The notes beneath the pieces were generated by a model. It ran no database searches. It was not told the origin of the DNA and was given only the letters and a program-made list of their open reading frames with translations. 64,000 nt of DNA, from contig CAYZTC010000001.1 in the NCBI GenBank assembly GCA_964481345.1, forward strand, positions 7,766-71,765, given 5' to 3'. Positions 22,928-64,000 of this stretch are shown here, one piece after another; the first letter of the stretch is position 1, and every line of letters begins with the position of its first letter. This DNA comes from an uncultured Candidatus Saccharibacteria bacterium. Lineage in GTDB: Bacteria; Patescibacteriota; Dojkabacteria; SC72; JAFGCJ01. The position numbers were made by a program, and so were the translations under genes.

Positions 22928-23421
22928 AGCTGGACTAAGCAGTACATAAGCCGAATTCTGTCTAGATGACCATTTATCTTCCAATTCGCCAGAGGCGAAT
23001 GGACCCACAGCCGAACTCAAATTTTCAAGATGAGTGCGACATAGGGTGCGGCACTAGGCCTTGCTCCAAGCGGGGGTTACCACGCACTCTTCGATTACTC
23101 TCAGAGCCGGTGGTCTCTTACACCACCTTTTCACCCTTCCCGCCTTCGTTCTCGTCTCCGACTCGAACTACGGCGAGGTGAATCCCCACACAATAAATAA
23201 ATATTTTGGGGCTCGCCTCGTCGCAGCCTCAGCGAAGCTGAGAGCGAAGACGGGGGTTTGCTTTCTGTTGCCCTTTTATCCAAAAGATCACTCCCTTCCT
23301 GCTTTCACAGGCACTTACTCCGAATCGTCGGAGCCACAAGGAGTCCGGACTTTCCTCCCTTCGGCAAGCTCAGAGCAAGCCCCTCACTCACCAAACGGCG
23401 GTCATCAGTAATACTTAGTCC
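22928..23421 (-). ncRNA. rnpB: RNase P RNA (bacterial type)
   Basis: The minus strand contains the P4 5' strand GGGAGGAAAGTCCGGACTCC, GGGTGAAAAGGTGGTGTAAGAGACCACC (P10-P12-like), the P4 3' strand ACAGAATTCGGCTTATG, and a P1 pairing GGACTAAGTA/TGCTTAGTCC. GC-rich in an AT-rich genome, so the three listed + strand ORFs inside are spurious. Confidence 0.8.
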
Positions 23422-33609: not shown

Positions 33610-33634
33610 CTTGTCCTGGAGCGAAGTGATAGGA
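33610..33634. repeat. 25-nt element CTTGTCCTGGAGCGAAGTGATAGGA at the rplE start (copy 1)
   Basis: 24/25 identical to 51720..51744. On the minus strand it places CCAGGACAAG immediately 5' of the rplE ATG and can pair with the 3' end of rplX. Confidence 0.6.
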
Positions 33635-36494: not shown

Positions 36495-36561
36495 CTAACA
36501 CCTATTTAAAATATTCTTCTACTCCCCTCGACGTAGCTCCGTCTTACGGAGCGAAGGCGGG

Positions 36562-51019: not shown

Positions 51020-51424
51020 CTATTCTAACTCTCCAGGATCATCGACAGGAGACTCATCTTCTGGATAATACTCAGGCTCCTCTTTTGCTGAAGAATTTGA
51101 AGTGTCCTGGTCTTGACCTTCGAAACCTGGGATTTTTCTTTTTATTTTATTAACAAAGGAAGAGATAAGCTCAAATGGTCTAATCACATACCCTGATACA
51201 GTATCCACTGTTTTTTGAACAATACCAAGCATATCATTGATCTTTTTAAACGCCTCTTTCGCTGATGTAATAATTTCCTTAGATTCTTTTACAACAAATC
51301 TAACCTCCCTCATAGTAAGGCCACCTTCCCTTAAAAGCATTGCAGTATAGAAAAGAATCATGCCAAACATGCCTGACAGACCAGCAATTATCACCATCCA
51401 AAACCAAGAAGGAATTTCACTCAT
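51020..51424 (-). CDS. Small membrane protein with acidic C-terminus (DUF948-like?)
   Basis: 134 aa; N-terminal TM (WFWMVIIAGLSGMFGMILFYTAMLL), a helical middle and a D/E/P-rich tail. Confidence 0.4.
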   Translation of the reverse strand: MSEIPSWFWMVIIAGLSGMFGMILFYTAMLLREGGLTMREVRFVVKESKEIITSAKEAFKKINDMLGIVQKTVDTVSGYVIRPFELISSFVNKIKRKIPGFEGQDQDTSNSSAKEEPEYYPEDESPVDDPGELE

Positions 51425-51470
51425 AGACAGACTTTGGCAGTCAATTTATCTTCGGCAAGAGTATCGCACA

Positions 51471-51716
51471 TTAGTTTTTTTCAGTCAATAAACCCATAGG
51501 GGGCCTGTCCCCCTTATCCACAAACCATAATAAACCAGCATTTCTGGCCCCTAAGGTTTGCATACCCTCAGTATGGAAACGAACTAAACTAGACCAACCA
51601 GCATTATTAATCAAATAGCCAGAATCTATCCATTGAATTACGTCATGACAACTCGAACGATTGGATCCTATCGTCTCGCTTCGCGGGACTCCAGGATATG
51701 CGTTCAAGGGATGCAT
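51471..51716 (-). CDS. Orphan GC-rich small ORF (81 aa); coding status uncertain
   Basis: An ATG preceded by the same CCAGGACAAG element found at the rplE start. Composition is GC-rich relative to the genome and it contains the GGGGCCTGTCCCC repeat, so it could instead be part of a structured RNA. Confidence 0.25.
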   Translation of the reverse strand: MHPLNAYPGVPRSETIGSNRSSCHDVIQWIDSGYLINNAGWSSLVRFHTEGMQTLGARNAGLLWFVDKGDRPPMGLLTEKN

Positions 51717-51719
51717 CCG

Positions 51720-51744
51720 CTTGTCCTGGAACGAAGTGATAGGA
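51720..51744. repeat. 25-nt element CTTGTCCTGGAACGAAGTGATAGGA (copy 2) upstream of the orphan ORF
   Basis: Same sequence as at the rplE start. It pairs with 51661-51690 to form a long imperfect stem enclosing the orphan ORF's ATG. Confidence 0.6.
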
Positions 51745-51780
51745 ATAGAGCCTCATACCACAATTCCCATCCTGACAAAC

Positions 51781-53436
51781 TCACAATCCTTTCTTCATAT
51801 ACAACTCACCCATCTCATACCCAAGCCTCTCATAGTACTTCCTAGTCCCCACTGCTGATATAACAGAAATGCCGTTATAACAATCTTCTTTGGATATTTC
51901 TTCAGCAAGTTTAACCAGTTTTGATCCAATTCCAATATGCTGTGCTTTTCCCTTCTCTTTCTTACCGACATCCGCAACCTCACCATACACATGGACCTCC
52001 CGAATCAAAGCATTTATTCCTAGTTCATCGATGAAACATTTTTCTTTGGGCAAACTAAGTCTAAGGAAGCCAGCTAGTTTGTCATCTTTTGTAACATAGG
52101 ATAGAAACATTTCTTTTCCAACAGATGTTTCATACTCAATTTTTTCAACTTTTAGATTAGACCACTTTACTTTTTTTGCTTTAATCTCCCTACATCTAAT
52201 GCACTTACAAGGGGTACCTTGTTTAATCAGTTCATCCTCAACATACTGCCTTAAGTTAGTGACTTTATTACCTTCCACAATGTATTCTCCTGGAATATCC
52301 CGAATTACTCTGGTAAGCCTGCAGTATCGGGGTGTTAGTTTCATCAAATCTTCCAGAAGCTCCTTCAATTCATCACCTACATATGGTTTATATTTCCCAC
52401 TTTTATATAAATTGAACAGTTTTGTTCCTCGCATTATAGATGTTGGGTAAATCTTTAGTTCATCAGGTCTAAAATCCCTTCCCCACAGCCTTTTGTAGTC
52501 TTTTATGTCTTTTTTAACAGTCGACCCGTGGAGGTTTGCCATCCAGTGCGCATGTATCTTAAAGCCTGTCTGTCTAAGCAGTTTAAATGCTTTCTTGGTT
52601 CTCTCAACATCATGTCCTCTATCATTTAACTTCAGTATTTCATCATCTAGTGACTGTACACCTATTTGAACTTTTGTAACACCAAGTTTTCGGTATTTAA
52701 TAATTTCTTCTTCAGTAATATAGTCAGGCCGAGTTTCAACGCACAGTCCAACACATCGACATTTAGCTGTTTCATTATGTTTCTGCAGTCGAAACAGGCT
52801 TTCCCAGGATGGGGCCTGTCCCCGTTCGCCAGCGGCGAACCAGCCTTTGGCTGGCCGGGGACAGGCCCTGTTTAACGCTCTGAAGCACTCAGTCACAAAC
52901 CATACTTTATAATCCTCAGGATAAAAATCCCATGTGCCGCCCAGAATAATCAGCTCAACTTTGTCAGTAGAGTGACCAATGTTTTTCAAAGCTAACAAAC
53001 GGTTGTAAACCTGAAGGTATGGATCAAACTTATTTTCCAGTGCCCTTTGCGCACCAGGCTCCTTCGATACATAGCTTTTGGGAAGATTATCTTCACTTGG
53101 ACAATAGATGCACTTTCCAGGGCACTCATATGGCTTTGTAAGCACTGTGACAACAGCCACCCCAGAAAGCGTCCTTACCGGTTTTCTCCTTATTCGTCTC
53201 TCCAGTAAATCACTTTTTACCAACAGTCCGTTGTCCATAAAATACTTGTATCCAGCAACGAGCTCATCTTTGCTAAAAAACACTCCTTTTTCTTTCAAGT
53301 TGCTCTTCAAAATGGTATGAAGGGAGTTTGATCTCCACTTTTTTGTCCCCTTTATCTCAGTAAAAATCTTCTGAAGCTTTTTACTGTATTTTCTAGGTTT
53401 AAAATTGTCTTTCATAAGCAGGTATAATTGTATCAT
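51781..53436 (-). CDS. elp3: Elp3-family radical-SAM / GNAT tRNA-modification enzyme (elongator protein 3 homologue)
   Basis: …RTLSGVAVVTVLTKPYECPGKCIYCPSE…KFDPYLQVYNRLLALKNIGHSTDKVELIILGGTW… (radical SAM, CxxxCxxC) and a C-terminal GNAT domain (…QHIGIGSKLVKLAEEIS…YYERLGYE). Confidence 0.75.
   Translation of the reverse strand: MIQLYLLMKDNFKPRKYSKKLQKIFTEIKGTKKWRSNSLHTILKSNLKEKGVFFSKDELVAGYKYFMDNGLLVKSDLLERRIRRKPVRTLSGVAVVTVLTKPYECPGKCIYCPSEDNLPKSYVSKEPGAQRALENKFDPYLQVYNRLLALKNIGHSTDKVELIILGGTWDFYPEDYKVWFVTECFRALNRACPRPAKGWFAAGERGQAPSWESLFRLQKHNETAKCRCVGLCVETRPDYITEEEIIKYRKLGVTKVQIGVQSLDDEILKLNDRGHDVERTKKAFKLLRQTGFKIHAHWMANLHGSTVKKDIKDYKRLWGRDFRPDELKIYPTSIMRGTKLFNLYKSGKYKPYVGDELKELLEDLMKLTPRYCRLTRVIRDIPGEYIVEGNKVTNLRQYVEDELIKQGTPCKCIRCREIKAKKVKWSNLKVEKIEYETSVGKEMFLSYVTKDDKLAGFLRLSLPKEKCFIDELGINALIREVHVYGEVADVGKKEKGKAQHIGIGSKLVKLAEEISKEDCYNGISVISAVGTRKYYERLGYEMGELYMKKGL
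52811..52869. repeat. GC-rich palindromic three-way-junction element inserted in-frame in elp3
   Basis: A 13-bp perfect outer stem (gggcctgtccccg/cggggacaggccc) encloses two 6-bp hairpins (ttcgcc-agc-ggcgaa; ccagcc-ttt-ggctgg). It encodes an extra ~17 aa (…PRPAKGWFAAGERGQAPSW…) relative to the Elp3 consensus between the conserved …FRALN and …CVETRPDY. Confidence 0.6.
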
Positions 53437-55787: not shown

Positions 55788-55875
55788 GCTTTTACTCTAT
55801 ACGAACAATTGAATACTTCATGACATCTTAACAAGTAAAATAATTGCTAAATAACAGACTGCATATTCTGGAGCC

Positions 55876-55896
55876 CTCCGCCTCTGGCGGAGGCGA
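55876..55896. other. GC-rich hairpin between the P-loop kinase gene and alr
   Basis: cctccgc-ctctg-gcggagg: 7-bp GC stem with no U-tract. Confidence 0.3.
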
Positions 55897-55917
55897 TAGA
55901 ACCCCACATTCCCACAA

Positions 55918-57940: not shown

Positions 57941-58597
57941 TTACTTTTCCACCGCCTCCCTTACGTGCTTATACTGACACCATTTGCAATCCGGATTCTC
58001 CTTTGGAAGAGGACCTTTCAAGAGCTCATCGACTTCCTTCATAAACTTCAAAAACCCTTTATCATCTATGGGCACTTCCAGCCATTTTGGTGGAAAGTCA
58101 ATTTCCACTGAATCACTATCAAATTTCACTTCATCCGGATAGAAAATGAGTAAAGCTAGTTTTGAGATCTTCAACGGTGAGCCGGACTTGGGATTTTCTA
58201 TAGCATATTTATACGCCCAAAGCTGAGATTTAAATTTTTCTACTTTACTTTCTTCTGGCTGGCTGATTTTGAGGTCTACCACAGTATATGTACCATCAGA
58301 GTTTTTCACGAGCAGATCATATTTACCTTTTATAAATACGGAAGTGCCAGGTACAACTATCGAATCGATGTATCCTTCTTGGTTAATAATCTTTCCGTCA
58401 GGAAAGTCTTTATTCAGATCTTTCAAATCCTTTCCCAAAAGACCCCCTTGCACCCTGCTGTTGATAGCAGAAAACACTCCAGGCATCGGCATACTCGGCT
58501 GAATAACCTCAGCCTTAACCTTAAGACAAAAACAAAGCTTGCACTCTTCATAAAGATAAGCAAAGTCTGAGGGAGAGAGTTTGTAGGTGGTTTTCAT
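57941..58597 (-). CDS. Cas4/RecB-like PD-(D/E)xK nuclease with Fe-S cysteine cluster (defence-operon gene 4)
   Basis: Motifs …GKYDLLV…TVVDLKIS (D…D-x-K), QLWAY (QxxxY), N-terminal CKLCFC and C-terminal CKWC. Confidence 0.55.
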   Translation of the reverse strand: MKTTYKLSPSDFAYLYEECKLCFCLKVKAEVIQPSMPMPGVFSAINSRVQGGLLGKDLKDLNKDFPDGKIINQEGYIDSIVVPGTSVFIKGKYDLLVKNSDGTYTVVDLKISQPEESKVEKFKSQLWAYKYAIENPKSGSPLKISKLALLIFYPDEVKFDSDSVEIDFPPKWLEVPIDDKGFLKFMKEVDELLKGPLPKENPDCKWCQYKHVREAVEK

Positions 58598-58628
58598 TTT
58601 TGTATAGAGGGTAAAATAATAATTAAAT

Positions 58629-61600
58629 TTACTTTGTCTCTTTTATTGCATCTTTTAATTTCCAAAACATGCTTCCACCTTCTCGAATAAGATCGTTTAT
58701 TAGTAAATATGTTCCAGATTTAGTTTCCTGATTAGCATACAAAACACTGAATGCACTAACCCATTCTTCATCCAATGAAAAAGTACTGTTCTTTTTCAAT
58801 CGTACAAAACCTTCCAGTAAATATAGTTTTGAAATCTCGAGCGTATCTTTAGGTGAATCTTTTGCAAATTGAACAATTGAATCAATAAGACCATATTCAT
58901 ACTCAATTACACCTTTTGTTTTCTCAAGGGTTCTTCTTACATGATCTGAAAGCCAATGTATCTCAAAAACCTCTACTTTTGTATTCATCCAATGTCCAAA
59001 CTCTTCGAACAATCTCGGATTTTTCCTATTTTCAAGAACCCTATCCCATAAATTACATAACCTATCCTTGCACCATTTTTTCTTCAATAGCTCTTTAACT
59101 TTATTATTATCTCCTAAAATGTACCTTCCTAAAAAATTCAGAAAGCTAGCTTGTCTATCATAATCATTGTCTCTCCAAAAGGCTTTAAATAATGTATCAT
59201 CGAACCCAAACTCCTTATAATGAACAAACGCCAGAGCTAGGTGTATTGCAATACCTTCCTTCAAATCTTTAAAATATTTTCTATTTGGATCCATATTATT
59301 ATTCAAGCTTAATCCTTTTTTGTATAATTTCTGTAATTCTTTATCAAAGAATATTTCTTCGAATAGATCATTTGATAGATACCCTTCCCAGGAAGCAATA
59401 TAAAGATGCTTTTTCTTTTCACTCAGAGGAAAAATTTTAACTGTCAAATCTAGAATCCACTTTTTATCTCGAAAGTAAAAAGAAGGAAGATAATGTCCAA
59501 ACATAAAATATATGGCTCGAGTTTTCTCTTCTGTTAAAACATATTCGTATAACTTTTTTACATCTCTAGAAATCTTCACTTCCACTTTCTTATCAAATTT
59601 TTTGCCATCCTGAAATACGAAGTACACAAATGCTTCAAATGCTTTTCCTCGAACAGAGTTAATGGCAATAGAAAATGGATCGCTGACCAGTTTATCTTTA
59701 TTAACCCCAGAGATCTCTGTCATAGACGCTGTTTCTAATTTTTCATAATCTACGGTTGGATCTGGATAGCGAAGAAGATAGCTGATCATATCAAATATTT
59801 GGTCACGATACTTCGGGAAATCAATAACAACCTTTCCATTACTTTCCTCAAGTAATTTTTTAATTATATCCGCCATTGCACAATGCACGCTATTCCATCC
59901 TGCTAGCCAAGTATCAAAGTCCTTATAATCCCGTTTCAGTGATACAAAAGATTTTTTCTCCCCTGACTCTTTTATCACAGTAAGTAAATCTATCAAACCA
60001 TCCCAATTAATACTATTTAATTTCTCCTTATCTTTACTTATAGTTTCTTGCAAACCCCGTAAAAACGAATAAGTATAATGCGGATCAATCACATTCCTAT
60101 CAAAGAATAGTAATGAACTATTTATGTAGTCTTGTAATCGATTAGGAATATCCGACTGTATGTATTTACCAATCCCCCTTGCATTTATGCGATCGAAACT
60201 TGAATTATTAGTGTTCTGCTTTTTCAATTTTTCAGGAACCCACTCTGTCTTCAGATTTTGAACGATCTCTTTTATTTCAAGTTTATTAAAGACTTCTTGA
60301 GGAATTGGACCTCGTGATATTACAGTTCCACTTCGGAGAGGACCAATACTAGGTTTAGGCTTATAACTAGGATCTAATATGAATCCTGCTTTCTCTATTT
60401 TCTTCTCCTCCCCATTGGTAAGATAACCTATAATCATTGAGAGAACCCTTGAACCATATATCACTGACTGATCTCGATCTTCTTTATCCTTATCACGATT
60501 CTTAAAATACTCTACAACCATCTTTACATACTCACCCTTATCATCATTTGATAATACAGAAAACCCTTTTCTTAAAGCTTTTTCATACTCTGCGCCAGAG
60601 ATAATTTCATAATAATGTTCTGCTTCGAATAACCTGAAAAACTCTTCTTTAAGTTCGTTTTTAAATACCTTAGGACACAAACATAATACAAACAATCTCA
60701 AACGCCACATTGATCTGCTATCAGGTAGTGGCTCTATATATTTTTCATAAACCTCCCTTATAAGATCAATTTCTTCACACTTTTTACTAATCAATCTATT
60801 TAAAAATATTTTTATGATTGCCGCAAGATCTCTCATACCCTTTTCATATGATGGATATTCACTTTCATCAAGTTCTAAAGTGAAAAAGTCTACAACGTAC
60901 ATAGGAAATAAATCATTTATCTCGAACACTTTCTCAGTATTAGACTTTTCACCTAAATTAACGATTTTAGCCATTACTTTTGTAACTAACTTCAAAGCCT
61001 TTTCTGTATATTTCTCACTCATCAGAAAAAGATGTTCGATAACTTTTGTTGACGATAAATCTCCAAAATAAAATGGATTTTCACTGCTAGGTCGGTTATT
61101 CACTGTTTTCATTTCTTTTTTTGTACGTACGGATAAGACGGTTTCTACAAGTTTCAAGATATTCATATAATCTTTCACATCTACGAGAGTTCGAAACATC
61201 TTCTCATATTCAAAACCGTATTGTTTAAATGACCCCATCAATTTCACCCAATTTTCCCTGTGAATTTTTCCCACGATCCGAGCCAATTGCTTTGCGGATA
61301 GTTCACTGCAAATTCGAAGAAATCGATCGATTACTTCCGGATTAAATGTTTTCCTAGATATCGGAATCTCAAGCATAATATCAACAACTTCTGAAGGGTT
61401 TTTCTCTGAAACCTTCAGAAGATAATTTATCTCAGGCGATTGATATCCATATCTTGGTGCATCTTCCGCTTTTTTCTTTAGCACATCTAAGAATCCATTC
61501 TTCCAAAGCCATCTAAGCCATCTCCCATCAGCTCTAGCAAAAAAGTAATCCCGATCTTTCGAAACAAATTTCAAGACATCCTCTAGTACTGCCTCTTTAG

Positions 61601-61652
61601 AAGTCTTAGAAAGTAATTTCTCTATATTTTTATGTAACCTAATATAGTCCAT
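58629..61652 (-). CDS. Large (1007 aa) alpha-helical protein of unknown function (defence-operon gene 3)
   Basis: No NTPase, nuclease or protease motifs seen. Composition is helical-repeat-like. Translationally coupled to the CHAT gene (3-nt gap). Confidence 0.4.
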   Translation of the reverse strand: MDYIRLHKNIEKLLSKTSKEAVLEDVLKFVSKDRDYFFARADGRWLRWLWKNGFLDVLKKKAEDAPRYGYQSPEINYLLKVSEKNPSEVVDIMLEIPISRKTFNPEVIDRFLRICSELSAKQLARIVGKIHRENWVKLMGSFKQYGFEYEKMFRTLVDVKDYMNILKLVETVLSVRTKKEMKTVNNRPSSENPFYFGDLSSTKVIEHLFLMSEKYTEKALKLVTKVMAKIVNLGEKSNTEKVFEINDLFPMYVVDFFTLELDESEYPSYEKGMRDLAAIIKIFLNRLISKKCEEIDLIREVYEKYIEPLPDSRSMWRLRLFVLCLCPKVFKNELKEEFFRLFEAEHYYEIISGAEYEKALRKGFSVLSNDDKGEYVKMVVEYFKNRDKDKEDRDQSVIYGSRVLSMIIGYLTNGEEKKIEKAGFILDPSYKPKPSIGPLRSGTVISRGPIPQEVFNKLEIKEIVQNLKTEWVPEKLKKQNTNNSSFDRINARGIGKYIQSDIPNRLQDYINSSLLFFDRNVIDPHYTYSFLRGLQETISKDKEKLNSINWDGLIDLLTVIKESGEKKSFVSLKRDYKDFDTWLAGWNSVHCAMADIIKKLLEESNGKVVIDFPKYRDQIFDMISYLLRYPDPTVDYEKLETASMTEISGVNKDKLVSDPFSIAINSVRGKAFEAFVYFVFQDGKKFDKKVEVKISRDVKKLYEYVLTEEKTRAIYFMFGHYLPSFYFRDKKWILDLTVKIFPLSEKKKHLYIASWEGYLSNDLFEEIFFDKELQKLYKKGLSLNNNMDPNRKYFKDLKEGIAIHLALAFVHYKEFGFDDTLFKAFWRDNDYDRQASFLNFLGRYILGDNNKVKELLKKKWCKDRLCNLWDRVLENRKNPRLFEEFGHWMNTKVEVFEIHWLSDHVRRTLEKTKGVIEYEYGLIDSIVQFAKDSPKDTLEISKLYLLEGFVRLKKNSTFSLDEEWVSAFSVLYANQETKSGTYLLINDLIREGGSMFWKLKDAIKETK

Positions 61653-61655
61653 AAT

Positions 61656-62780
61656 TTATGTGAATTTACATTTATACAAAATTGGAATAGGAACACTCTC
61701 TTCATTTTCACTTCTATACTTTATTAAGGATTGTAAATAAGCATCTTCAATACTACTATTATCGAAGAGTTTTTTGTAGAAAACACTAGAGAAAGAATTA
61801 GCATGTTTAGTTTTTATTCCACCTTGATACCCAACCACGTATGCAGAGAGATTTTCTTGAGCAAGTTGGAAAGCAAGAGACCCCTTATACTCAGAGTATT
61901 CATCAATTTTGCCTAATTTTCCTCCTGAATGACAAGTTGATAGGTAAACTAGGTGATAGTTTCCCTTACGGAGTTCTGTAAGTAAATCTGATATGTTAAT
62001 CTCCACGTAATATTTGTAATATTGTCTCTCTGGAGATTCAAGATATAATTCTCCATTTGGACCTCCATGCATTGTAAAATGTAAATATTTGTACTCATCC
62101 CAGTGAAATTTTTTCATTGCATTCATTGTTGTATGCCTAGACAAAAGAACATTATCAATCCAAAATTTTTTATCTTTATCCTTACTCTCATCATCCACGA
62201 GAGATTTAATAAAATCATATATTGCAGTTATCTCAGTTCGTAGTCCTTTACTTATATCTTTCATACTATTTTCATCATCACTCCTACAAGCATTTGATAT
62301 TAGCAGAAGGATATTGTTCTCTGAAAGCTCTAGAGTTTTACTCTGTCCACAAGGTATTTGACGAATAACATATCCCTCATTGTTGAAAACTTGTTCCCAG
62401 GGAAGCTCTAAAAATAATGCGCTATCTGAAGATATGATTACTCCACTTTTGTGACGGCTGGTATCAATATTAATTTTCTTTACCAAATATCTCATTAAGC
62501 CAACAAAATCTAACATTTTCTCAGGTATATCGACAGATTCAGTATCAGATATAACATCTGGATCAGTAGATAAAATTGCTGATCTTTGTTTACCTATTCT
62601 TGGATCCAAATTTTTAAAATCATCAATCGGTATATAATTTTTTTTACCAGCTGACTCAATAAATAAATACGTTCCCTTCGGAAGACTCTCAATCTTCTCT
62701 TCTCTTACTTCAATAAAACTTCCGGATATATTAATAACATCCGTACAAGTCTCTTTGTTACCTTTATCTTCTATCGACAT
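61656..62780 (-). CDS. CHAT-domain (caspase-like) protease (defence-operon gene 2)
   Basis: …ALFLELPWEQVF… (the LP[WF]E motif) and a His/Cys dyad (…YLHFTMHGGPNGELYL… and …HLVYLSTCHSGGKLG…) about 45 aa apart, then …KGSLAFQLAQENLSAYVVGYQGGI. Confidence 0.6.
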   Translation of the reverse strand: MSIEDKGNKETCTDVINISGSFIEVREEKIESLPKGTYLFIESAGKKNYIPIDDFKNLDPRIGKQRSAILSTDPDVISDTESVDIPEKMLDFVGLMRYLVKKINIDTSRHKSGVIISSDSALFLELPWEQVFNNEGYVIRQIPCGQSKTLELSENNILLLISNACRSDDENSMKDISKGLRTEITAIYDFIKSLVDDESKDKDKKFWIDNVLLSRHTTMNAMKKFHWDEYKYLHFTMHGGPNGELYLESPERQYYKYYVEINISDLLTELRKGNYHLVYLSTCHSGGKLGKIDEYSEYKGSLAFQLAQENLSAYVVGYQGGIKTKHANSFSSVFYKKLFDNSSIEDAYLQSLIKYRSENEESVPIPILYKCKFT

Positions 62781-64000
62781 TTTCTCCCTCCACTATCTTA
62801 ATCTCTTCTTTCGTCAACCCATACAATATATAAACCTCTTGATCAATCTCATTATCAAGTTTTTTAATTTCTGCTTTCAAGCGAGCATATTTGTCGGTAT
62901 TTCCCGTTGTTTCTTGCAAATCCTGTTGCAGGTCAAGCATAAGCTGGGCTAGTTTCACTATTTCGGCTTGTTCTTTTTCGCTTGCTTCAGGTATTGGAAA
63001 AGTGGCAAGCTCTTTCACTTTGAATTGCGGGAAAGTTTTACGTTGAAATTTATCAAAAGTATTCACAAACCAAAAAGTAGTAATCCTGGAATTAAGAACA
63101 GCAAGAACAAAATGACTATTAACCTTAAAGTCCAAAACTATCATACTATTTCGATCGTTCATTAGCATATCTTCATTTATAAAAACTGCATTTATTGAAT
63201 ACGGTGGAAGAGAAGGTATCTGTCGAACTAGAATTCTTGGATTAACGTATAAATCTCGCGTTCTAGGTGCAGCAAGACATATACCATACTTTACCCATGA
63301 ACCTGACCAATCAATTTGATAACGCTTAACATCTTTACCATCTAAATATTTGTACCAATGTTCACCTTCATTTTTATCCGAGTGGTAAATACGATTATTC
63401 TTCATTTCATTGGTTTGTAGTGGGCTACCTTTTCCTGTTTCGTAAGCAACAAAACCTGACTTAATAGTTGTAACCTTTTTAAGTTGTTTTGATTTCTCGT
63501 TTACCTTTTTCAAAATCATCATCTTTTCTTTATTCTTTGCCAATGAAATGTTAATTATATAGTTGGTACTTTTAAAAGTATCCGGCACAAACTTTCCGAC
63601 AATTTTCAGCTTGCCATCTCTAAATTCACCGAGTGTTACTTTGCTTCTCCTGCCTTTTTTGAAAATCAAAAGACAGGTGTCAACATTGGCATCACCAAAA
63701 ACTTTGTTATAAATATTGATAATTTGAAGACTCCCGACTTCTTCAAGTAAAAACTTTCTAAGAGGAGCAAAGGTATCAATCGTCAGCCATGTATTAGGAA
63801 CGATAAAGCCGAAATATCCACCTTGTTGTAGGAGATTAAAGGCTCGCTCAATGAAAAGCAGGTATGTGTTAAGCTGATAGTTTGCCAGCTTGTAATCATC
63901 GTAAAAGTATTTTTTTATAGAATCATCAAAACTTTTTCCTCTGGCAAAAACATACGGCGGATTACCAATAATCACACCAAACCCACCTTGTTTGAAGACT
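62764..64000 (-). CDS. N6-adenine DNA methyltransferase (gamma-class NPPY) with C-terminal TRD; 5' end beyond window (defence-operon gene 1)
   Basis: The frame stays open to the window end (…VFKQGGFGVIIGNPPYVFARGKSF…). Motif IV NPPY is followed by ~400 aa. Overlaps the CHAT gene by 17 nt. Confidence 0.7.
   Translation of the reverse strand, partial: VFKQGGFGVIIGNPPYVFARGKSFDDSIKKYFYDDYKLANYQLNTYLLFIERAFNLLQQGGYFGFIVPNTWLTIDTFAPLRKFLLEEVGSLQIINIYNKVFGDANVDTCLLIFKKGRRSKVTLGEFRDGKLKIVGKFVPDTFKSTNYIINISLAKNKEKMMILKKVNEKSKQLKKVTTIKSGFVAYETGKGSPLQTNEMKNNRIYHSDKNEGEHWYKYLDGKDVKRYQIDWSGSWVKYGICLAAPRTRDLYVNPRILVRQIPSLPPYSINAVFINEDMLMNDRNSMIVLDFKVNSHFVLAVLNSRITTFWFVNTFDKFQRKTFPQFKVKELATFPIPEASEKEQAEIVKLAQLMLDLQQDLQETTGNTDKYARLKAEIKKLDNEIDQEVYILYGLTKEEIKIVEGENVDRR

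Follow-up and report, generated by a model that had tools for sequence, protein, structure and literature searches.

The window analysed here, a 64-kb stretch of DNA, carries on its minus strand elp3, the gene of a tRNA U34 modification enzyme, and a short GC-rich palindrome lies in frame within that gene. The window is bacterial, as its class A RNase P RNA and its genes for bacterial ribosomal proteins show, and among named sequences the closest Elp3 homologues come from Candidatus Dojkabacteria (WS6), which belong to the candidate phyla radiation (CPR). The Elp3 protein has the Pfam domains Radical_SAM, Radical_SAM_C and GNAT, scores 515 bits against TIGR01211 (cut-off, 350) and finds PDB matches at 1e-87 to 1e-106. 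We consider it likely that the palindrome is a doublet of repetitive extragenic palindrome (REP) cores, resembling the paired REPs known as REPINs, that belongs to a widespread repeat family and has become fixed in a variable loop of Elp3 (Table 1).

Table 1. Features of the elp3 locus, and loci of other genomes in which a gene of the REP-associated tyrosine transposase (RAYT) type adjoins the core
Feature	Location	Strand	Remarks
elp3, radical SAM/GNAT tRNA U34 modification enzyme	51781..53436	-	host gene; intact, all invariant residues present
Elp3 codons 190-210 (RACPRPAKGWFAAGERGQAPS)	52807..52869	-	variable loop between invariant N189 and W211
Whole palindromic element, candidate REP doublet (REPIN-like)	52811..52869	both	three-way junction on either strand
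Left REP core GGGGCCTGTCCCC	52811..52823	+	left outer-stem arm; core-match scan
Right REP core, inverted, AGGGCCTGTCCCC on the minus strand	52857..52869	-	right outer-stem arm; 12/13 bases matching
Spacer, two perfect 6-bp hairpins (TTCGCC-AGC-GGCGAA and CCAGCC-TTT-GGCTGG)	52825..52854		particular to this copy
Single REP core	51500..51512	+	355-nt spacer downstream of elp3; apex of 6-bp hairpin AGGGGG-CCTGT-CCCCCT
RAYT-like gene beside core	L072		Vicinamibacterales
RAYT-like gene beside core	L115		Bacillus
RAYT-like gene beside core	L116		Gaiellaceae
RAYT-like gene beside core	L030		Actinomycetota
RAYT-like gene beside core	L064		Spirochaetales
RAYT-like gene beside core	L028		Bryobacterales

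On the plus strand, the element (52811-52869) reads GGGGCCTGTCCCC-G-TTCGCC-AGC-GGCGAA-CCAGCC-TTT-GGCTGG-C-CGGGGACAGGCCC-T. Nucleotides 52812-52824 pair with 52856-52868 to form a 13-nt outer stem of 100% complementarity, which encloses hairpin 1 (52825-52830 with 52834-52839; 6 bp, loop AGC) and hairpin 2 (52840-52845 with 52849-52854; 6 bp, loop TTT), and a single unpaired base remains at the three-way junction. All 25 stem pairs are perfect. An earlier note on this DNA had described a 59-nt GC-rich element lying in frame in the AT-rich coding sequence of elp3, with a perfect 13-bp outer stem and two perfect 6-bp hairpins, and each of these points is borne out by pairing, by folding and by the minus-strand open reading frame (ORF) at 51781-53436. 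Folding of the mRNA region, which the note had proposed, gave the three-way junction as the minimum-free-energy fold, and the same holds for both strands: the fold reaches -56.7 kcal/mol as mRNA-sense RNA (z = -4.5) and -34.6 kcal/mol as plus-strand DNA (z = -5.9), far more stable than shuffled sequences, none of 200 matching it in either case. At 75% GC over 40 nt, the element also forms the window's highest GC peak, 4.7 sd above the mean (37%, sd 8%), with 70-75% GC in its spacer, and the native AT-rich sequence of elp3 reaches right to the palindrome edge. Contigs from one SRA run (SRR3095939) and from three metagenome samples of JGI (3300008516, 3300008517 and 3300028837) contain the identical sequence (L001-L003, L126 and L127); since these are independent assemblies, the element is real and not an assembly artefact. 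The idea of an assembly or sequencing artefact, or of an ordinary lineage-specific loop that happens to be palindromic, has the ordinary length of the loop in its favour and nothing more, and is effectively refuted by the recurrence in those samples, by the failure of any shuffle to fold as well and by the height of the GC peak.

Alignment of homologues places the element at Elp3 codons 190-209 (RACPRPAKGWFAAGERGQAP; window 52810-52869), S210 completing a 21-residue loop. In the AlphaFold model (mean pLDDT 85.8), residues 190-210 form a coil (pLDDT ~60, and <50 at 201-204) between helices 174-189 and 211-221, a site that, going by the model, is expected to vary freely in sequence. The loop measures 14-60 residues in 112 of the 120 best Elp3 homologues, 21 being a common value, whereas archaeal Elp3 (PDB 6iad alignment) is ~15 residues shorter and has ~5 residues there. 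The "~17 extra residues" claimed in the earlier note thus hold against the archaeal protein only; relative to the nearest relatives there is no net insertion, and the element constitutes essentially the whole variable loop rather than lengthening it. REP-type peptides occur in none of the other 119 of the best 120 homologues. The loop DNA of two relatives has a GC fraction of 0.22 and 0.47, near the averages of their own genes, and is unstructured (-14 and -23 kcal/mol versus -59.5 kcal/mol for the window loop); the window loop stands at 0.73, against 0.40 for elp3 as a whole.

The 60-nt segment is presumably translated. Were it instead an intervening sequence, removed from the RNA or bypassed in translation, its compactness, its perfect bounding helix, its length in multiples of three and the ~5 residues that archaeal Elp3 has at this place would be accounted for, but removal would leave a loop of 1 residue where 112 close homologues have at least 14. 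In addition, the segment matches no ribozyme or intron model and keeps an open frame, and the peptide resembles the in-frame REP peptides that we found in SelB and MiaB-like genes (see below). We know of no bacterial mechanism for such splicing and regard this explanation as highly improbable.

The outer-stem arms proved to be widespread. In a scan of GTDB genomes, one for each species, the outer-stem pair (GGGCCTGTCCCC, 20-45 nt, GGGGACAGGCCC) occurred at no fewer than 119 loci in ~43 genomes of some ten phyla, as tallied from record titles, so that in other genomes the core forms a multi-copy family, as expected of a REP. Acidobacteriota, Bacillota, Pseudomonadota, Actinomycetota, Bacteroidota and other groups are represented, with loci in Neobacillus, Bacillus and other Bacillaceae, Diplocloster and other Clostridia, Oxalobacteraceae, Massilia, Thioalkalivibrio, many Acidobacteriota, several Actinomycetota, Poribacteria, Planctomycetota, Lentisphaerae, a spirochaete (Spirochaetales) and Hymenobacter. 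Cores of this type (GGGRCNKGYCCC-type) are constant across the foreign loci, with spacers and flanks that are lineage-specific, the flanks often extending the palindrome, and they occur as singlets, doublets and tandem arrays, with extra singlets or arrays at many of the loci and up to ~15 copies per 8 kb. At the GGG-N5-CCC sites of the fetched loci, the loop is ACAGG 411 times, ACAGT 63, ACTGG 13, ACAGA 12 and ACTGA 4 times, the commonest loops after ACAGG being one-base variants of it, so that the family can be summarised as GGG-ACWGN-CCC. When the loop was permuted at unchanged composition, the resulting control core had 4 matches among the 241 million records of metagenome_contigs, a comparison that is only rough because it sets the counts of the real and the control core in two different collections side by side; viral contigs yielded one doublet, terminator-like and just past a stop codon, too few to serve as a control. 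No Rfam family covers the repeats in 18 foreign loci, a full-text literature search for the 13-mer and the 11-mer returned only unrelated eukaryotic primer sequences, and the core is absent from the sequences printed in the survey of intragenic REPs by Di Nocera, De Gregorio and Rocco (2013, BMC Genomics 14:522; PMC3733652) and its supplements. For all its wide distribution, the core is apparently undescribed.

Tandem arrays of the core are found at L057 7610-7895, L082 1177-1490 and L046 5318-5860, and also in L085, L098, L099 and L105. The array of Neobacillus dielmonensis has six units with a 39-nt period; that of a Coriobacteriales metagenome-assembled genome (MAG) alternates 19- and 25-nt units ~13 times; and a Poribacteria chromosome bears long arrays of ~158-nt composite units, in which the unit carries a GTAG tag.

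Clustering all ORFs of the foreign loci, we identified one recurrent family adjoining the core, namely PF01797 (IS200-like Y1) proteins of 150-190 residues with an HUH motif and a catalytic tyrosine. Their genes lie ~10-300 nt from core copies in six loci of unrelated lineages (Table 1), and L129 and L130 likewise have a RAYT flanked by the same core. Six Y1 genes in 119 windows of 8 kb are presumably about ten times the expectation, if we take a genome to hold 1-2 such genes, which is a general estimate and not a control that was computed. In NCBIfam these proteins match NF047646 ("REP-associated tyrosine transposase") best, and along the entire profile, and their database homologues carry the source names RayT or REP-associated transposase. 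Searching from the transposase outward recovered two loci orthologous to L072 with an exact core pair ~50 nt past the stop codon, three Bacillaceae relatives with one- or two-base core variants (GGGGACTGACCCC and GGGGTCAGACCCC) and one locus flanked by a different repeat. The exact and variant cores beside related transposases indicate that the core co-varies with the transposase, as REP-RAYT pairs should. A Rossellomorea RAYT homologue in L139 is followed, at 2565-2800, by tandem copies of another hairpin repeat (TGAGCCAGGCTCA and an A-rich linker), and related RAYTs can therefore pair with unrelated REPs.

The core is stop-free in all six frames, encoding GACP, GPVP, GLSP, GDRP, GTGP or GQAP. 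We trusted reading frames in loci with a GC fraction <0.50, and in only one of 33 such foreign loci (L064, 158 aa) is the doublet spanned by a stop-free frame of 150 aa or more. Inspecting genes of GC-rich genomes individually, we found a core in frame in SelB of an Actinomycetes MAG (L091 1094-1137), between the beta-barrel and winged-helix domains, and another in a MiaB-like radical-SAM enzyme of Lentisphaerae (L025 5995-6059), between the UPF0004 and radical-SAM domains. In Lentisphaeraceae (L041 3554-3609), several cores stand in a frame continuous with Mfd, upstream of the UvrB-interaction domain, the Pfam domain identified there being downstream of the cores only. The core is thus in frame inside at least two other genes (SelB and the MiaB-like gene), and probably in Mfd as well. 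Long stop-free frames across doublets of the GC-rich loci L016, L058, L020, L096, L039, L069, L040 and L111 have translations that resemble antisense or wrong-frame artefacts, and we did not count them as intragenic; in L090 the true start codon probably lies further downstream. In Vicinamibacteria (L059 6385-6450), a cluster of cores immediately precedes the finger domain of a DnaE2-like polymerase, in a gene whose upstream frame is broken.

The genome of the window itself was examined over ~82 kb, that is, the 64 kb of the window and ~18 kb past its ends, about a tenth of a CPR genome. The 13-mer GGGGCCTGTCCCC, said in the earlier note to recur near 51499-51513, does so exactly at 51500-51512, between a terminator-like hairpin and a promoter-like site of the next gene, and the element's right arm is a copy of it with a single mismatch. 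At up to 2 mismatches the window holds 3 matches where 0.33 are expected, a number that none of 100 shuffles reaches, and GGGG-N5-CCCC is confined within the ~82 kb to the doublet and singlet sites, 1.3 kb apart. Further cores were absent from the ~18 kb past the window ends, and blastn-short added no window copies to the known 13-mers; a search of the genome for the 13-mer and the full element, as suggested earlier, therefore returned over ~82 kb the one singlet and no second doublet. Hairpin 1 matches a hairpin of the RNase P RNA (22985-22999) at 14 of 15 positions, which we judged to be chance (E = 1.2).

The 355-nt spacer that contains the singlet (51425-51780) has a GC content of 41-49%, above the genome mean, and neither a significant fold (z = -1.45 and -1.07) nor a Pfam match was found in it. 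The singlet falls in the 3' end of an orphan 81-aa ORF (51471-51716, minus strand) that is called as a gene in public assemblies. This ORF has no genuine homologue among 1.8 billion representative proteins; its matches beyond itself are spurious summed matches to unrelated repeat proteins. A 25-nt repeat, CTTGTCCTGGAACGAAGTGATAGGA, occurs at 51720-51744 and 33610-33634 (24/25 identical, E = 5e-6), directly upstream of the start codons of the orphan ORF (51716) and of rplE (33608), and presents on the minus strand a hairpin foot and an AGGA Shine-Dalgarno-like site; it could serve both genes as a module for translation initiation or regulation. Abutting the singlet is a perfect DnaA-box consensus, TTATCCACA (51514-51522). 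The site is not a replication origin, because GC skew is monotonic across the window, and the match is probably chance.

The earlier note had also raised the possibility of a regulatory RNA structure in the mRNA, which found no support. In its general form, that the element is a locally evolved functional structure of mRNA or DNA (serving, for instance, to pause translation, stop an RNase or bind a protein) whose likeness to REPs is coincidental, this explanation can point to a very stable, perfect fold of the mRNA strand and to the second 13-mer in the downstream spacer of the same transcription unit. However, relatives are structureless at the homologous place, both strands fold equally, which fits a DNA palindrome better than a selected RNA, and the exact 12/13-mer inverted pair is multi-copy elsewhere, while the permuted control is rare. 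Nor does any Rfam family apply: at Rfam 15 gathering thresholds the whole window contains only RNase P and a tRNA, and an E-value search of 51300-53000 gave no match near the element with an E-value below 2. We therefore hold a local functional structure to be improbable. The very stable mRNA structure of the element would instead be a tolerated by-product, not a selected function, although the junction could slow ribosomes or block exonucleases as a side effect.

As for what kind of mobile DNA the element resembles, the suggestion of a REP/MITE-like element tolerated as a protein loop is favoured as regards the REP and the tolerated loop, and not as regards the MITE. The element has two inverted REP units, a short spacer (31-33 nt) and a perfect 13-bp stem, as a REPIN has, and its core is multi-copy, has RAYT neighbours and recurs in frame in other genes. 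A miniature inverted-repeat transposable element (MITE) would have the terminal inverted repeats of an insertion sequence, a target-site duplication and a length of ~70-400 bp; we rejected this class, as the element is 59 nt long, has no flanking direct repeat and has REP hairpin cores for arms. REPs and REPINs are defined as extragenic, which is true of the singlet at 51500 and not of the doublet in elp3 codons 190-209.

In the history that we favour, two inverted REP cores, each a GGGG-CCTGT-CCCC hairpin unit, would make up the doublet together with the 31-33 nt between them. IS200/IS605 and RAYT enzymes move DNA as single-stranded hairpins. By analogy, copies of this family would be mobilised in the same form, this one presumably by a RAYT, and one doublet would have become fixed within elp3 at the variable linker that joins two helices of the radical-SAM domain. 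Its survival at this place can, we suggest, be put down to three things: 60 nt preserve the reading frame, the core is stop-free in six frames, and the 20-mer, rich in Gly, Pro, Ala and Arg, replaces a loop that is free in length and sequence. The perfect stem pairs and the extreme composition in a 37% GC genome imply either a recent event or a maintained structure.

Several observations weigh against this history. At the insertion site, the nearest Elp3 relative is only 58% identical, with no empty-site allele available. The one-residue loop that deletion of the element would leave, against at least 14 residues in 112 close homologues, implies that ancestral loop-coding DNA was lost or replaced, and that simple insertion is not the full history; such a deletion or replacement would be plausible in a reductive genome. 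The elements of the window are flanked by GGAT, AACA and ATAG, with neither a GTAG nor a CGTC tag on any window copy. With three cores only in ~82 kb, all within 1.4 kb, the genome is not visibly REP-rich, and no RAYT was detected in the window by tblastn and six-frame HMM search, or in the ~82 kb. The two-hairpin spacer is absent from the 119 foreign doublets compared, and an exact-stem pattern of it had 0 matches in metagenome_contigs, a collection that evidently lacks the source contigs. To the roughness of the control comparison must be added the scores of the RAYT-like proteins, at 54-69 bits below the curated NF047646 cut-off of 80. These proteins are, moreover, only 27-34% identical to one another, so that an identical 13-nt core across phyla is surprising for a pair that co-evolves; this leaves room for horizontal spread or for some other constraint.

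Some of these points would be explained if the copy were REP-derived, yet not placed by a resident RAYT: it might have come by recombination or gene conversion with foreign DNA (of a host or neighbour), or be the relic of REPs that have died out and lost their transposase, and would now be immobile. The lack of a RAYT and the clustering of three cores within 1.4 kb in ~82 kb agree with this, as do the spacer of 70-75% GC in a 37% GC genome and the 25 perfect stem pairs, which suggest a recent arrival; relatives of the RAYT do travel on plasmids, though rarely (18 of 72,556 records). On the other hand, the RAYT search spans only about a tenth of the genome, the flanks are native AT-rich elp3 up to the palindrome, and no donor with this spacer turned up in metagenome_contigs, with the limit on that collection given above. 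We consider such an origin unlikely, and favour a REPIN-like doublet of the family fixed in the Elp3 loop.

REPINs consist of two inverted REPs with a short spacer that form one hairpin (Bertels and Rainey 2011, PMC3116915; Bertels et al. 2017, PMC5581495). In REPIN-RAYT systems the Y1/HUH transposase gene is typically single-copy and flanked by the same REP, and classical REPINs lie outside genes, reach tens to hundreds of copies in a genome and are described as lineage-specific and vertically inherited (PMC3116915, PMC5581495). The element shares with these systems the hairpin of an inverted pair and, in other genomes, Y1/HUH genes that neighbour the same core. It differs in that its 13-nt core spans about ten phyla and in that the ~82 kb seen here hold minimal copies and no RAYT.

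A nearer likeness is provided by intragenic REPs, which are mostly dimers that encode 20-30 residues, often in repair genes (PMC3733652). These are the same kind of short GC-rich palindrome, often inverted dimers, in frame in intact genes, and their family, like the present core family, is otherwise extragenic and RAYT-linked; the bias of that set to repair and replication genes is also matched by the other gene sites of the core (Mfd and the DnaE2-like polymerase). By contrast, the window doublet sits in a small, AT-rich CPR genome in which copies are very few, and this dimer makes up the entire variable loop instead of being an addition to it, with a spacer that forms two extra hairpins. The unpaired GTAG or CGTC tetranucleotide that marks one palindrome end in the tagged REP superfamilies is absent from the window copies, whereas Poribacteria copies of the same core do carry GTAG.

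Rickettsia palindromic elements (RPEs) are selfish palindromic DNA in frame in genes, as Ogata et al. (2000) are cited in PMC3733652, where some RPEs are equated with REPs. On that summary the present element behaves alike, being an in-frame palindromic insertion in the otherwise intact ORF of a reduced genome, of a sort tolerated in surface segments of proteins. RPE-1 is ~100-150 bp long and Rickettsia-specific, and to our knowledge no transposase is known for RPEs. The comparison is one of behaviour and not of sequence, the host here being a Dojkabacteria-like CPR bacterium. In fungal mitochondria, GC clusters and double-hairpin elements are likewise GC-rich multi-hairpin mobile DNA in very AT-rich genomes, sometimes in coding or rRNA regions, but they belong to eukaryotic organelles, are unrelated in sequence and have an unknown or different mobilisation.

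The window has further features besides the palindrome. The class A RNase P RNA (22932-23417, minus strand) is 486 nt long against a 367-position model and has a GC-rich insertion of ~94 nt in one helix (model positions 136-137), which we take to be P12. GC-rich hairpins at 36522-36561 and 55866-55913, with stems of 7-9 bp and ~70% GC, lie just past minus-strand stop codons; they look like terminators, have no U-tract after them and are unrelated in sequence to the REP core. A minus-strand cluster at 57941-63975, continuing in L126, encodes an MmeI-like type IIL methyltransferase/endonuclease, a PD-(D/E)XK nuclease and two large proteins (374 and 1007 aa) without a Pfam match, and may be a defence island. 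Nearly all genes of the window are on the minus strand and the GC skew of the plus strand is negative throughout (cumulative, -8.2), placing the window within a single replichore.

Taken with these precedents, the element is a further case of the known phenomenon of intragenic REPs, RPE-like in behaviour, in a new host phylum; our literature search found no report of an intragenic REP in the candidate phyla radiation. Intragenic REPs are known but rare, and CPR genomes are small, streamlined and thought to be poor in selfish DNA. A mobile palindrome that supplies a whole loop sequence would be a concrete way for selfish DNA to remodel proteins. Of wider consequence may be a by-product of the search, namely that one 13-nt hairpin core stands beside RAYT-like genes from Bacillaceae to Acidobacteriota to Poribacteria. 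If the core is shared by common descent or transfer, it would call into question the view of REPIN-RAYT systems as lineage-bound, and would supply a simple sequence tag with which to find such elements, including intragenic ones, in metagenomes. More speculatively, and with considerable doubt, GGGG-ACWGN-CCCC could represent an undescribed REP superfamily, mostly untagged and served by a diverged RAYT clade, in at least ten bacterial phyla including the CPR, whose six-frame stop-free, Gly/Pro-coding design lets it repeatedly colonise genes, making or replacing surface loops. Such a superfamily would conflict with the picture of REPIN-RAYT as lineage-bound and vertically inherited, and would be a pan-bacterial counterpart of the RPEs of Rickettsia.

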